57,221 bases of DNA, from the sequence record PV189400.1. One strand, given 5' to 3'. The position numbers are program-made. Positions 36,001 through 42,000 of the stretch are shown here, in pieces. Numbering within the stretch: the first letter of the stretch is position 1; each line of letters begins with the position of its first letter. This DNA comes from Escherichia phage vB_EcoP_phi296.

Positions 36001-39000
36001 GCACAAACCTGACTCCAATTTGAGCAAGGCTATGTGCCATCTCGATACTCGTTCTTAATTCAACAGGAGATGCTTTGTGCATACAGCCCCTCGTTTATTA
36101 TTTATCTCTTCAGCCAGCCGCTGTGCTTTCAGTGGATTTCGGATAACAGAAAGACCGGGAAATACCCAGCCTCGCTTTGTAACGGAGTAGACGAAAGTGA
36201 TCGCGCCTACCCGGATATTATCGTGAGGATGCTTCATCGCCATTGCTCCCCAAATACAAAACCAATTTCAGCCAGTGCCTCGTCCATTTTTTCGATGAAC
36301 TCCGGCACCATCTCGTCAAAACTCGCCATGTACTTTTCATCCCGCTCAACCACGACATAATGCAGTCCTTCACGCTTCATACGCGGGTCATAGTTGGCAA
36401 AGTACCAGGCATCTTTTCGCGTCACCCACATGCTGTACTGCACCTGGGCCAGGTAAGCCGATTTTATGGCCTCGAAACCACCGAGCCGGAATTTCATGAA
36501 ATCCCGGGAGGTAAACGGGCATTTCAGTTCAAGGCCGTTGCCGTCACTGCATAAACCATCGGGAGAGCAGGCTGTACGCATACTTTCGTCGCGATAGATA
36601 ATCGGGGATTCAGTAACATTCACGCCGGAGGTGAACTCAAACAGGACTCTGGCGTCGTTCTCGTATTGTTTTCCCCAGGCCAGTGCTTTGGCATTAACTT
36701 CCGGAGCCACACCGGTGCAAACCTCAGCAAGCAGGGTGTGGAAGTAGGACATTTTCATGTCAGGCCATTTCTTTCCTGAGCGGGGTTTTGCTATCACGTT
36801 GTGAACTTCTGAAGCTGTAATGACGCCGAGCCGTAATTTGTGCCACGCATCATCCCCCTGTTCGACAGCTCTCACGTCGATCCCGGTACGCTGCAGGATA
36901 ATGTCCGGTGTCATGCAGCCACCTTCTGTTCAGAGGCTTTCTGTTTCAGGAATCCAAGAGCTTTCACTGCTTCGGCCTGTGTCAGTTCTGACGATGCGCG
37001 AATGTCGCGGCGAAATATCTGGGAACAGAGCGGCAATAAGTCGTCATCCCATGTTTTGTCCAGGGCAATCAGCAGAGTGTTAATCTCCTGCATGGTTTCA
37101 TCGTTAACCGGAGTGATGTCGCGTTCCGGCTGACGTTCTGCAGTGTATGCGGTATTTTCGACAATGCGCTCGGCTTCATCCTTGTCATAGATACCAGCAA
37201 ATCCGAAGGCGAGACGGGCACACTGAATCATGGCTTTATGCCGTAACATCCGTTTGGGATGCGACTGCCACGGTCCGGTGATTTCTCTGCCTTCGCGGGT
37301 TTTGAATGGTTCGCGGCGGCATTCATCCATCCATTCGGTAACGCAGATCGGATGATTACGGTCCTTGCGGTAAATCCGGCATGTACAGGATTCATTGTCC
37401 TGCTCAAAGTCCATGCCATCAAACTGCTGGTTTTCATTGATGATACGGGACCAGCCATCAACGCCCACCACCGGAACGATGCCGTTCTGCTTATCAGGAA
37501 AGGCGTAAATTTCTTTCGTCCACGGATTAAGACCGTACTGGTTGGCGACGATCAGCAATGCGATGAACTGCGCATCGCTGGCATCACCTTTAAATGCCGT
37601 CTGGCGAAGAGTGGTGATCAGTTCCTGTGGGTCGACAGAATCCATGCCGACACGTTCAGCCAGCTTCCCTGCCAGCGTTGCGAGTGCTGTACTCATCCGT
37701 TTTATACCTCTGAATCAATATCAACCTGATGGTGAGCAATGGTTTCAACCATGTACCGGATGTGTTCTGCCATGCGCTCCTGAAACTCAACATCGTCATC
37801 AAACGCACGGGTAATGGCTTTTTTGCTGGCCCCGTGGCGTTGCAAATGATCGATGCATAGCGATTCAAACAGGTGCTGGGGCAGGCCTTTTTCCATGTCG
37901 TCTGCCAGTTCTGCCTCTTTCTCTTCACGGGCGATCTGCTGGTAGTGACGCGCCCAGCTCTGAGCCTCAAGACGATCCTGAATGTAATAAGCGTTCATGG
38001 CTGAACTCCTGAAAATGGCTGTGAAAATATCGCCCGCGAAATGCCAGGCTGATTAGGAAAACAGGAAATGGGGTTAGTGAATGCTTTTGCTTGATCTCAG
38101 TTTCAGCATTAATATCCATTTTTTATAAGCGTCGACAGCTTCACGAAACATCTTTTCATCGCCAATAAAAGTGGCGATAGTGAATTTAGTCTGGATAGCC
38201 ATAAGTGTTTGATCCATTTTTTGGGACTCCTGGCTGATTAAGTATGTCGATAAGGCGTTTCCATCCGTCACGTAATTTACGGGTGATTCGTTCAAGTAAA
38301 GATTCGGAAGGGCAGCCAGCAACAGGCCACCCTGCAATGGCATATTGCATGGTGTGCTCCTTATTTATACATAACGAAAACGCCTCGAGTGAAGCGTTAT
38401 TGGTATGCATATAAAAAGGCCCTCACACTGGAGGGCAAAGAAGATTTCCAATAATCAGAACAAGTCGGCTCCTGTTTGGTTACGAGCGACATTGCTCCGT
38501 GTATTCACTCGTTGGAATGAATACACAGTGCTTATTCGTACTAATAAAACACCCAGTTTTCTGTTTCTTGGTTGTGTCCAAAGTTATATTCAATATCTGG
38601 TGTTGATGTATCAATATTCTTCATCCCATCAACAAGAGTTGATACAACAGCCAAATCTTGTTTTATTCTCATTAAATGGTATTTCTTCCGGCGCAATAAA
38701 CTTTCAATAGCAAGTTTCTTCGTTGGGAATGCAAAAGATCTTTCTGCATTTTTTGCTACTTTCTTAATTGCATATCTATTTCTCCTTTGTTTCCATTCCT
38801 GTAACCACTGATTTGGTGCTGGTTTAAAATTAACAATCCAATGCGCAGGAACCAACCATGCATAATGCTCTGTCTGATGAAAAGCTATATATTGAAGTGC
38901 GAATATTTTTATCCCATCTTCTTCAACTGTCGCCTGGAATCTCCAGAAAACAGGCATTCCATCATGTTCAGTTTCTGATTCAGGAAAAGGTACGCTCCAT

Positions 39001-42000
39001 GATTTTGTCAATCTCACCTCAAATAATTCAGTGCTGTGTTTATTCTGTTGTTTATGCCAAAAATAAAGGCCGCCATCAGGCAGCCTTGTTGTTCAGTTTA
39101 CCAAGTTCTCTGGCAATCATTGCCGTCGTTCGTATTGCCCATTTATCGACATATTTCCCATCTTCCATTACAGGAAACATTTCTTCAGGCTTAACCATGC
39201 ATTCCGATTGCAGCTTGCATCCATTGCATCGCTTGAATTGTCCACACCATTGATTTTTATCAATAGTCGTAGTCATACGGATAGTCCTGGTATTGTTCCA
39301 TCACATCCTGAGGATGCTCTTCGAACTCTTCAAATTCTTCTTCCATACATCACCTCAAATAAGTGGTTTGCTGCCAAAACAATGAACCATCCGGAAATTC
39401 CAGATAGTTCATAATTCACTCTTCAATACTTCCAACTTACTAATCGCCGATAGATATCCGCGCTGATAGGGCATCATCATTCCTTCGAGCTTGCCACTTC
39501 TTAACTCCTCCCTGAGCAATTGTATTGCTTGATCAATAACCTCTGCCTTAGCGTCCTTTATGGCTTGCTTGCGGGGCTTTGCTTTCTGCTTTGGCAGATT
39601 TCTCAAGCATGATGGAATGTATGTCTGATTCATCACTTACCTCGCTGTCAGTTGTTTTGATTTCCGGTATCCTGCCGCGTAAATGGCTACGTTTGGCAGG
39701 CAAATACTTCCACTGCGTTCATCTTCTTCCTTGCAGCAAAGGCTTCCGAGTGATGCTGCTTTATCTGCTCTGACGCAACCAGAGAGCTTTAGCGCAATTT
39801 TTCGTGCCAGTCGCTGCTCTTGCATTGCCTGTTCACGTTGAGCCTGTCTGCGTGCTCTGCGGCGATTTCTGGCGTTATCGTCAGCCAGATATGTAATGAC
39901 TACTGTCATGTTGACCTCCGATGATTGACTTTGGCGGTGACGCGCCGGGTGCTTATCTTCCGGTTGCCGTCGTGCAGCTGCACTTCACGTCACCCCAAAG
40001 CCAACTACTCTTTGGTTCCCGCATTTCGGCGGGACAATCCCATCAATGTTAAAGAGCCTGCCAATCTGTTCCGTTTGGCTTCCAGCGCCCTGCTGATGGC
40101 TAAAGAATACTGTAGGTATTTTATTGTGTAAATACCCAAGGTATTTATTTTTGGTGAAATAATGATAAGCAAATGAATACAAAGGATATTTATTTTTTCG
40201 GTGTCTGCTTGTTCAGTGCTTTTTATGCGGGATATGTGAAGTGGATCCCGATAGCTATTGCTGCCGGGATTATAGGTTAGTCAGCGAAGGTTAAGACGAG
40301 AATTACCTTAATGATGTCTGCTACAACAGACACGGCCATAGATAAACCAAAGACGATCCAAGCCACAGTGATGTCTTCACTACCATCGTATAGAGTTCCG
40401 TAATCACTGGTGTAAGGCGTAAATGTCGCGCCTTGATACAATAGGTATAAGCTTGATCCATAGAGGATAAATGCAGATATCCCTTGTATTGCTATGATCA
40501 CCAGAATCATGAAACGAGCTGATCTATGCGCCCAAGCCTGGCTTATTTTTTCTGATAGAGATTTCGCAATAAAAGCATGCGCTAAGCCGTAAATTGTCGA
40601 GATTGCCAACATCCCAAAAAAGCTTGCTATAGCGGTTCCAACCATAATCGCCCCTTGCGTGATCAAACCAGCCTTAGTTTTGTCTCAATTGCAACGCCTA
40701 TAATCTTGCAGTTTCCATTGATTGGCACGAGAGGCCATGCAGGATTAAGTCCCTTGAGGTATTTATTTCCGCCGTCGATTATCAGCTTCTTGAATGTTGC
40801 TTCGTTAGAGTCAGAAAGTTTTGCTATGACCAAGCTGCCGTTGATCGCCTCCCTTCCGGTATCGAAAAGAACGAATGTTCCCTCTGGAATGCTTAACCCA
40901 ACCGGTGCCGTCATTGAATCACCTTCCACTTTAAGCCAGAACGCATTACCTTGAATATGCGCGTCAGACTCAAGCCAAACATCTATGTCTTTAATGGTGT
41001 ATGGTTCGCATGCTTCACACCACGAGCCAGCCTGGATACTGCTTAACACCGGATACCTCTTTCCTGCTCTGTATTCCCCTGCATACCTTACGTTGGCATC
41101 GCTCTTAAGGCTTTCTGCCTGTTCTGCAACCTTGGCAGCAATTGACTGGCTAAAATCAGCAATTGAGACTTGCAACAAACGTGCAAAACCAGATGCGACC
41201 TCAACGTTTAGCGCGTTTCTGCCATTAAGATAATGCCCTACCGCTCCTTGGGTGATACCCAGTTCATCAGCGATTGAGTATTGGGTTATTCCCAATTCTT
41301 TCTTTTTTGACTCATACAAAGCCTTAAGCCGCTTAGCGTCTTCGAGCTGTTCTGTCGTCAGTGATTTTTTATTTTCCATAGCTTAATTCTAATAGCTAAG
41401 GTACTTAAACTAAAAATACCCTGAGTATTGATTGCTTTGAATACCTGTAGTATTCTTTGTTCATGGTTAATAACGGAGAGTGCATATGATTCGAATGACA
41501 CTTGCCGATTACGCCAAAATCCATGGACAGGCTAAAGCAGCCAGTGACTTTGGTGTAATCCAGTGCGCTATCAGCAAGGCCATTCTGGCAGGCCGTAACA
41601 TCATGGTTACGGTAAAGCCTGATGGCAGTGTGATTGGAGAGGAAGTTCGTCCTTTCCCAAGCAACAAGAAAAACAAATAGTAACACCGCTCTTTAACAGT
41701 CATGGTCATCATTCCCGCCGAAATGCGGGAATACAACGCGCATAATTTGATGCGCATAACTTCTTATTTGTTAAGGAAATACTTACATATGCAACTTACA
41801 AGTACTCGCAAGAAAGCGAATGCAATTACAAGCAACATCCTGAATCGAATTGCTGTACGTGGTCAGCGAAAGGTTGCCGACGCGTTAGGGATTAATGAAT
41901 CGCAAATTTCGCGATGGAAAGATAGCTTCATCCCCAAAATGGGAATGCTTCTGGCTGTTCTTGAATGGGGTGTTGAAGACGAGGAGTTGGCGGAACTGGC

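Follow-up and report, generated by a model that had tools for sequence, protein, structure and literature searches.

A low-GC gene of the HK97 gp45/933W L0079 family between ral and cIII of Escherichia phage vB_EcoP_phi296, a possible early counter-defence or DNA-protection gene

The leftward early operons of several lambdoid phages carry a gene that has long been catalogued without an assigned function, represented by gp45 of HK97 (NP_037731), L0079 of 933W (NP_049479) and orf57 of Stx2-86. Here we describe the copy of this gene in Escherichia phage vB_EcoP_phi296, located on the minus strand between ral and cIII. The stretch of DNA analysed, referred to below as the window, comprises 57,221 nucleotides (sequence record PV189400.1). 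Searches with tblastn showed that the encoded protein is 99-100% identical over all 156 residues to the three proteins mentioned and, in the same range, to an unannotated open reading frame (ORF) in the H-19B record and to sequences of BP-4795, Min27 and dozens of Stx1a and Stx2a phages; for HK97 gp45 and 933W the identity is 99.4-100%. The protein also matches PHROG 1636 ('unknown function') with E = 2.7e-112, residues 1-156 aligning to positions 1-156 of the 156-position profile. At the DNA level, 598 of the 5426 complete E. coli genomes searched carry the gene at ≥ 95% identity, some of them in as many as four copies. Each of these copies is annotated 'hypothetical protein', and the source names across three protein clusters are all 'hypothetical' or 'prophage protein'. 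A sequence-only reading of the window, which this analysis followed up, had implied a novel gene; on these comparisons the ORF is an ordinary member of an old family rather than a new one. What the family does can be proposed only tentatively: the reading that we favour, at somewhat less than an even chance, is that the protein is a non-enzymatic binder that protects or conditions phage DNA early in infection.

Literature searches under the accessions and names of the protein gave no relevant paper. The supplements of two accessory-gene screens by Silas et al. and of one machine-learning study on anti-defence genes contained no matching peptide or accession, the papers found on the early regions of Stx phages report nothing on the gene, and the Phi24B expression paper does not cover it. 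A 'gp45' that is discussed in a preprint on OLD belongs to phage HK578 and is not the HK97 protein.

As in HK97, 933W, H-19B and Stx2-86, the gene of the window lies in the pL operon downstream of N and shares the downstream junction to a hairpin that precedes cIII. The upstream neighbour is N in those phages, whereas it is ral in the window, where the order is N-like gene, orf75, orf28, ral, ORF, cIII. A second described gene with a comparable position is lambda ea10 (ssb), which is likewise a small, non-essential delayed-early gene of the cIII-ral interval transcribed from pL. The two differ in that they occupy different sites, coexist in 933W and encode proteins without sequence similarity (BLASTP gave no alignment with Ea10 at E ≤ 100). 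The comparison with Ea10 that had been proposed as a check thus revealed no relation to Ea10, nor was there one to another characterised family.

The ORF can also be compared with the accessory genes of the ral region (ral, lar and orf184), with which it shares the hypervariable early-left area, a cassette-like presence or absence and the expected timing of expression. The ral-containing accessory region is a documented hotspot of counter-defence genes and defence triggers, and its orf184 triggers gop-beta-cII (Silas et al., bioRxiv 10.1101/2023.04.06.535777). The model of orf184 begins with MEALVVERSEDGYWT, hence the ORF described here is a different protein. It also has no homology to the Ral and Lar families: even at E ≤ 10, Pfam offers neither Ral nor Lar_restr_allev (PF14354) but just Tmem26 and zf-H2C2, each well short of its own cut-off, and no hit to either family came from the 69 aligned members of the gp45/L0079 family.

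In the list of ORFs the frame runs uninterrupted over 38541-39017 (minus strand), corresponding to 158 amino acids if translation begins at GTG. This GTG (39017-39015), from which the sequence-only reading had counted, falls within the Shine-Dalgarno sequence GAGGTG. The true start is almost certainly the TTG at 39011, giving 156 amino acids, because GAGG is located 5 nt upstream of it and the homologues are all 156-159 amino acids long and begin with M-[ST]-[KE]-S-W. The frame as first described is intact, with a start that needs revision. In 933W and in one E. coli copy the start codon is ATG. The start region reads GAGGTGAGATATGACA in 933W and GAGGTGAGATTGACA in the window (39009-39023, minus strand), which corresponds to a 1-nt deletion that converts ATG to TTG and brings the Shine-Dalgarno sequence one base closer to the start; the ORF may be translated less efficiently in phi296 as a result. 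The low GC content noted earlier for the ORF between cIII and ral was confirmed: the GC fraction of the coding sequence (CDS) is 0.359 (GC3 0.274), as compared to 0.499 for the window, 0.52 for exo/bet and 0.42 for kil/ral. Profiles calculated over 200 bp dip to 0.335-0.355 within the ORF, against 0.50-0.54 across exo and bet.

Comparison of the CDS from the window, 933W and one E. coli copy revealed 0 nonsynonymous differences versus 5, 9 and 6 synonymous ones, counted over about 374 nonsynonymous and 91 synonymous sites. Homologues from Enterobacterales with identities down to 55% have kept the length, the motifs and 40 invariant residues. An exhaustive search with a profile hidden Markov model detected 87 relatives at E < 1e-3, nearly all of 100-170 amino acids and none with a domain fusion that informs function; a relative of 940 amino acids (P0059) with seven repeats is a repetitive surface-type protein (DUF7507/DUF11), and the match was judged spurious. 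A scan for more distant loci with another alignment (A3) found only 4 viral loci. To judge from the substitutions, the ORF is a genuine protein-coding gene under selection. A dispensable passenger without current function, in which the TTG start would mark the onset of decay, is accordingly the least probable of the explanations considered here. It would fit the 1-nt deletion in a position where 933W and other copies have ATG, the existence of truncated copies in the databases and the fact that lambda does well without the gene, but it is contradicted by the substitution pattern, which shows selection. Moreover, 593 genomes carry an unbroken frame at ≥ 80% coverage, conservation of the family extends to distant hosts, and TTG is a legitimate bacterial start codon that is preceded here by a good Shine-Dalgarno sequence.

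The gene is carried on a discrete segment without counterpart in lambda (Table 1), in which the CDS and its Shine-Dalgarno sequence are accompanied by no more than nine bases past the stop and about ten others. BLAST aligned positions 38409-38531 of the window with lambda 33923-34045 and positions 39029-39371 with lambda 34040-34381. The hexamer CAGTGC, present at both borders of the segment, occurs in lambda as a single copy at 34040-34045. The difference from lambda would thus be explained by illegitimate recombination at a 6-bp microhomology, and an insertion in the phi296 lineage or a microhomology-mediated deletion in that of lambda would account for it equally well. The ORF had been assigned to the position that ea10 has in lambda, which is not the case: ea10 has been removed by a 400-bp deletion of its own, and the segment is located at lambda 34045/34046, 122 bp further up the transcript than the deletion junction. 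BLAST against lambda and 933W and the junction sequences show that the loss of ea10 and the presence of the segment are two independent changes relative to lambda.

In other phages the two borders of the gene are found in different combinations. In 933W (order N, L0079, ssb, cIII) the downstream junction is the same as in the window, the upstream side is joined directly to N, and ea10/ssb is retained. In HK97 (order N, gp45, putative terminator, cIII) ea10 is missing, as it is in the window. The joint between ral and the ORF was found in 60 of the 5426 complete E. coli genomes, mostly O111, corresponding to about 10% of the gene carriers. Among phage records it is present only in vB_EcoP_phi367, which is 99.9% identical to the window over the early-left region (36240-41500). 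The upstream and downstream junctions of the ORF therefore have different histories. An Rfam scan detected no RNA family inside the 497-bp segment. Directly downstream of it a perfect 9-bp inverted repeat is located (GTGTATTCA-N10-TGAATACAC, 38499-38526), which overlaps the left CAGTGC by one base, is not followed by a T-run and is conserved in lambda and 933W; it may serve in RNA processing or be prone to recombination.

Concerning expression, the ORF has the orientation of the leftward early operon and lies there after N and before cIII. The N-like gene is itself preceded by a pL-like promoter and by boxA and boxB elements of the nutL type, in agreement with the earlier assignment of the ORF to the pL operon. 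A scan with the sigma-70 consensus revealed no promoter in or beside the segment, although weak or non-canonical promoters could escape such a consensus-only scan. The terminator-like hairpins on both sides of the ORF belong to the lambda backbone; the one preceding cIII is also found in lambda and 933W, and HK97 has a putative terminator annotated at the same place. Since the gene has no apparent promoter of its own and is positioned between two terminator-like hairpins, its expression would be N-dependent only: it would be a delayed-early gene, transcribed during infection or induction when N-antiterminated transcription from pL reads through, and co-expressed with Ral, CIII, Kil, Gam and Red.

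Morons, as defined by Hendrix and Juhala, are extra segments of deviating base composition that are inserted between genes which are adjacent in a related phage, that carry their own promoter and terminator and that are expressed from the repressed prophage. Lambda bor and lom and HK97 gp15 are classical lambdoid examples. The segment described here, which had been called a moron, resembles these as a discrete extra stretch of low GC that separates two genes which are neighbours in a related phage. Unlike the classical morons it brings neither a consensus promoter nor a terminator of its own and is positioned in sense orientation in a repressed early operon, so that expression from the prophage is not expected. 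It is thus probably not a moron in the strict sense, and the absence of an own promoter argues against expression in the lysogen. A true moron that is expressed from the prophage and aids the lysogen through superinfection exclusion, defence or virulence is accordingly very unlikely. The clean presence or absence relative to related phages, the high frequency of the gene in prophages of pathogenic E. coli, and a homologue that is a lone opposite-strand gene among tail genes (locus L011) are in line with this explanation. It is at variance with a segment that holds only a Shine-Dalgarno sequence and a CDS, with the orientation of the repressed pL operon and the terminator-like hairpin immediately upstream, with the occurrence of homologues in virulent phages, and with properties of the protein itself, which appears from its sequence to have no signal peptide or membrane segment. 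A search of PADLOC-DB likewise gave no significant match, the sole hit being Cas1_II (E = 0.018, 12.3 bits).

The protein is small and cytoplasmic, with a mass of 18.6 kDa and a pI of 9.07. Its basic character is concentrated in residues 61-120, which include 17 K/R versus 4 D/E, whereas both ends are acidic. Alignment of 69 sequences revealed an N-terminal hairpin region with the pattern YR...G...hET, a basic block (K..K....RFAF.TK..A...L..RK..QL.HL.R.L) and an aromatic-acidic C-terminal end. Only G33, T47, K87 and A101 are nearly invariant, from which it follows that no catalytic or enzyme-like signature is conserved. AlphaFold gave a poor model if only close homologues were used (pLDDT 54.8). 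With the 69-sequence alignment, to which 47 distant relatives had been added, the pLDDT increased to 95.7 with a pTM of 0.83. This model has strands at residues 19-30, 33-46, 50-55 and 83-86, short helices, a helix of 33 residues (98-130) and a C-terminal tail that is ordered. In the fold that it predicts, a long beta-sheet of three strands, or a small barrel, precedes the long helix, and the C-terminal tail packs back against both.

Comparison of the model with known structures by Foldseek yielded no match in the PDB (best E = 0.69). Small beta-barrels of the Tudor/SH3-like type with additional helices, such as PipX (PDB 3n5b), resemble it below significance and at 5% identity, and leave the long helix and the C-terminal tail unmatched. 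In BFVD there were 13 matches at E ≤ 1e-3, all to uncharacterised proteins from unrelated phages of Erwinia, Achromobacter, Sinorhizobium, Rhizobium, Delftia, Cellulophaga and Tenacibaculum. Sequence profile searches against Pfam, NCBIfam and the PDB gave nothing significant; the Pfam and NCBIfam scans agree with the earlier statement that the protein has no recognisable motif. The pattern RFAF.TK..A had suggested an AP2 or lambda Int arm-binding domain, which was rejected because the hhalign probabilities were below 1%. Anti-restriction proteins that mimic DNA (Ocr, ArdA and Arn type) are also dissimilar, as the protein is not acidic and the PDB searches gave no match to such a fold.

In the window the ORF is close to Ral and Gam. 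Around 20 independent loci with homologues were examined, and the association with neighbouring genes that they show is suggestive only. In a Pectobacterium prophage the homologue immediately precedes xis-int, in the metagenomic phage L012 it follows a Lar_restr_allev gene at a distance of two genes, and in HK97 it shares an operon with Erf and Abc2. A C5, Dam or other DNA methylase gene lies within 0-2.2 kb of the homologue in L014, L015, L018, L020 and Pantoea phage Nafs113, and if L012 is included, C5, Dam, N6/N4 or MT-A70 methylases are found within 0-5 kb. The pooled neighbours in nine further loci include integrases, RdgC, YqaJ, RecT, RNase_T, a RecA-dependent nuclease, N6/N4 and C5 methylases and a T7 gp5.9-like RecBCD inhibitor. 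The GC content of the homologue is below that of the locus in 13 of 14 loci. Exceptions to this pattern of neighbours are L011, mentioned above, and the N4-like phage phiAxp-3, in which the homologue is located between an ATPase gene and a PHROG-annotated HNH endonuclease gene, near a dCTP deaminase gene. Taken together, most of the homologues lie in early operons for recombination, anti-nuclease functions and DNA modification, which suggests that the family is a recurrent occupant of such operons.

If the protein is a binder that protects or conditions phage DNA, as we tentatively propose, it would bind its partner stoichiometrically and catalyse nothing. Binding would take place at the basic sheet-helix face formed by the conserved basic block; candidate partners are nucleic acid of the phage or of the host and, among host proteins, a nuclease or defence factor. 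The gene would then be an accessory gene for counter-defence or DNA protection, active early in infection. A narrower proposal, which is rather doubtful, would see in the gp45/L0079 family (PHROGs 1636 and 13631) non-enzymatic counter-defence factors with a new fold that bind phage DNA, or a nuclease, restriction or other defence component of the host, early in infection. The candidate anti-defence or host-takeover role suggested by the sequence-only reading is a reasonable guess for which the neighbourhood is the only ground.

Several points weigh against a protective role. No paper, named homologue or informative structural match was found, and guilt by association is weak here, as genes for recombination and methylases abound in early-left operons in any case. 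Homologues also occur elsewhere, among the tail genes of L011 and the nucleotide-metabolism genes of phiAxp-3. The family is broadly conserved among phages, temperate as well as virulent, that infect many hosts, and a general role in DNA metabolism would account for this at least as well as a narrow anti-defence role. The basic composition argues against a DNA-mimic mechanism. Furthermore, expression in phi296 may be low with TTG in place of ATG, and the promoter scan, with its restriction to consensus sequences, may have missed a weak or non-canonical promoter.

Another explanation is that the protein is no counter-defence factor but a nucleic-acid-binding helper of phage recombination or replication, for example a cofactor of Red, Erf or RecT that binds single strands or DNA ends, maybe with a function overlapping that of Ea10/Ssb. 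We consider this not very likely, although the central region is basic and homologues are found near YqaJ, RecT, Erf, SSB, RdgC and RNase_T in many loci, in phiAxp-3 amid replication and nucleotide-metabolism genes, and more generally in a broad family of temperate and virulent phages. The presence of the gene in the window and in HK97, where ea10 is absent, is also in agreement with such a function, but 933W carries both ea10/ssb and the gene, so the two are no strict alternatives. In addition, the family is found with Red, Erf and RecT-type modules and is tied to no recombinase, lambda recombines and replicates without it, and there is no sequence or fold similarity to SSB, OB-fold or annealing proteins.

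The shared operon and timing with CIII and Kil, and the position as first gene after N in HK97, 933W and H-19B, would fit a modulator of regulation or host physiology. Like Kil, CIII, Ea8.5 and the ORFs between exo and xis, such a protein would bind a host protein, for instance RNA polymerase, a protease or a division protein, and tune the lysis-lysogeny decision, the efficiency of induction or host shut-off. This is unlikely, as the virulent phages that possess homologues have no lysis-lysogeny decision to tune, and the papers found on Stx-phage early regions contain nothing on it. The preferred reading remains that of a DNA-protecting or DNA-conditioning binder, with the strength given above. 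The features of the locus are collected in Table 1.

Table 1. Features in and around the gp45/L0079-type gene of the vB_EcoP_phi296 window
Feature	Position	Strand	Basis
CDS, 156 aa, TTG start, HK97 gp45/933W L0079 family (PHROG 1636)	38541..39011	-	ORF list, PHROG profile, tblastn
Shine-Dalgarno sequence GAGGTG of the ORF	39015..39020	-	read from sequence
Low-GC segment (497 bp, GC 0.354) without counterpart in lambda	38532..39028		BLAST against lambda, junction sequences
CAGTGC direct repeat, left copy at segment border	38526..38531	+	junction sequences
CAGTGC direct repeat, right copy at segment border	39029..39034	+	junction sequences
Junction of 400-bp deletion that removes ea10 (lambda 33523-33922)	38408..38409		BLAST against lambda and 933W, junction sequences
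Terminator-like hairpin with T-run, just past the ral stop, upstream of the ORF, lambda backbone	39066..39087	-	consensus scan, sequence
Terminator-like hairpin GCCCTCCAGTGTGAGGGC with T-run, between the ORF and cIII, lambda backbone	38419..38436	-	consensus scan
ral (restriction alleviation; 98.5% to lambda Ral), upstream neighbour in transcript	39076..39276	-	ORF list, comparison with lambda
cIII (100% to lambda CIII) with thermoregulator RNA, downstream neighbour in transcript	38186..38350	-	ORF list, Rfam
pL-like promoter, upstream of N-like gene (39637-39909)	40132-40104	-	promoter scan
boxA-like element GCTCTTTAACA, upstream of N-like gene	40057-40047	-	by eye, consensus
boxB-like hairpin, upstream of N-like gene	40033-40018	-	by eye, consensus

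The DNA that surrounds the segment is 97.3% (35887-38408) and 97.1% (39029-39371) identical to lambda according to BLAST. The close similarity to lambda described earlier for exo, bet, gam, kil, cIII and ral applies to most of these genes, with protein identities of 97.8% for Exo, 99.6% for Bet and 97.9% for Kil besides the values for Ral and CIII in Table 1; Orf28 is 100% identical. An Rfam match to Lambda_thermo (38305-38363, 88.5 bits) confirms cIII. For gam the statement needs correction, since the long Gam frame of lambda (138 amino acids) is broken in the window (37702-38119, minus strand). The N-terminal extension is out of frame and forms a separate ORF of 50 amino acids (37967-38119), whereas the GamS frame of 98 residues (37702-37998) is uninterrupted and almost the same as in lambda. 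The lambda-identical block is also shorter than had been assumed: it spans orf63/exo to orf28 only. The N-like protein has 24% identity to its lambda equivalent, and the cI/repressor gene differs.

The N-like antiterminator gene (minus strand, 90 amino acids), which is annotated as such in phi367 as well, is followed by an ORF of 75 amino acids (39409-39636) and then by the lambda-identical orf28 and ral, pointing to a mosaic joint between the immunity/N module and the early-left block. The C-terminus of the N-like protein presumably resembles that of P22 gp24. The position of lambda rexB, between the pL-like promoter and the repressor gene (40663-41379), is taken by an ORF of 129 amino acids (40277-40666, minus strand) with hydrophobic stretches recognised by eye, annotated as hypothetical in phi367; its product is a candidate exclusion or membrane protein that would be expressed from the prophage. 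Outside the lambda-like block and upstream of its beginning at about 35.9 kb, Rfam matched sRNA-Xcc1 at 32532-32621 (minus strand; 65.4 bits, gathering score 53).

Other parts of the window harbor further RNA elements. Antisense immunity modules of the P1/P7 type control an antirepressor, and such a module is found here in a lambdoid genome at 46105-46300 (plus strand). It is composed of the c4-a1b1 targets (46105-46157), isrK (46118-46192) and the C4 antisense RNA (46215-46300), all above the Rfam gathering scores. The region 49087-52779 has the late-region layout of Stx phages and no stx genes. An ORF of 177 amino acids (49087-49620) occupies the position where the antiterminator Q would stand. 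It is followed by three tRNAs (50062-50134, 50145-50218 and 50235-50308), the small RNA STnc100 (50415-50620, 158 bits) and, directly after this, an ORF of 645 amino acids (50842-52779), the product of which we take to resemble the NanS-p esterase. From this layout, the window would therefore represent a stx-negative Stx-like phage.

The ORF of the window adds a further copy of a conserved hypothetical gene that was already known, in a region likewise known to be hypervariable. The family nevertheless deserves attention, as the gene occurs in about 11% of complete E. coli genomes, in most sequenced Stx1 and Stx2 phages and in the model phage HK97, and although its first sequencing dates back more than 25 years, it has no Pfam family, assigned function or solved structural relative. 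The confident predicted fold and the anti-nuclease and anti-restriction neighbours make it a cheap and well-posed target for testing. If the family is indeed a counter-defence factor, its carriage near Ral, Lar, Gam, Abc2 and orphan methylases in Stx phages, HK97-like phages and distant gammaproteobacterial prophages would reflect a shared anti-nuclease 'toolbox'. Confirmation of a role in counter-defence or DNA protection would add a new protein fold to the phage repertoire and may bear on the spread of Stx phages between restriction-proficient hosts.

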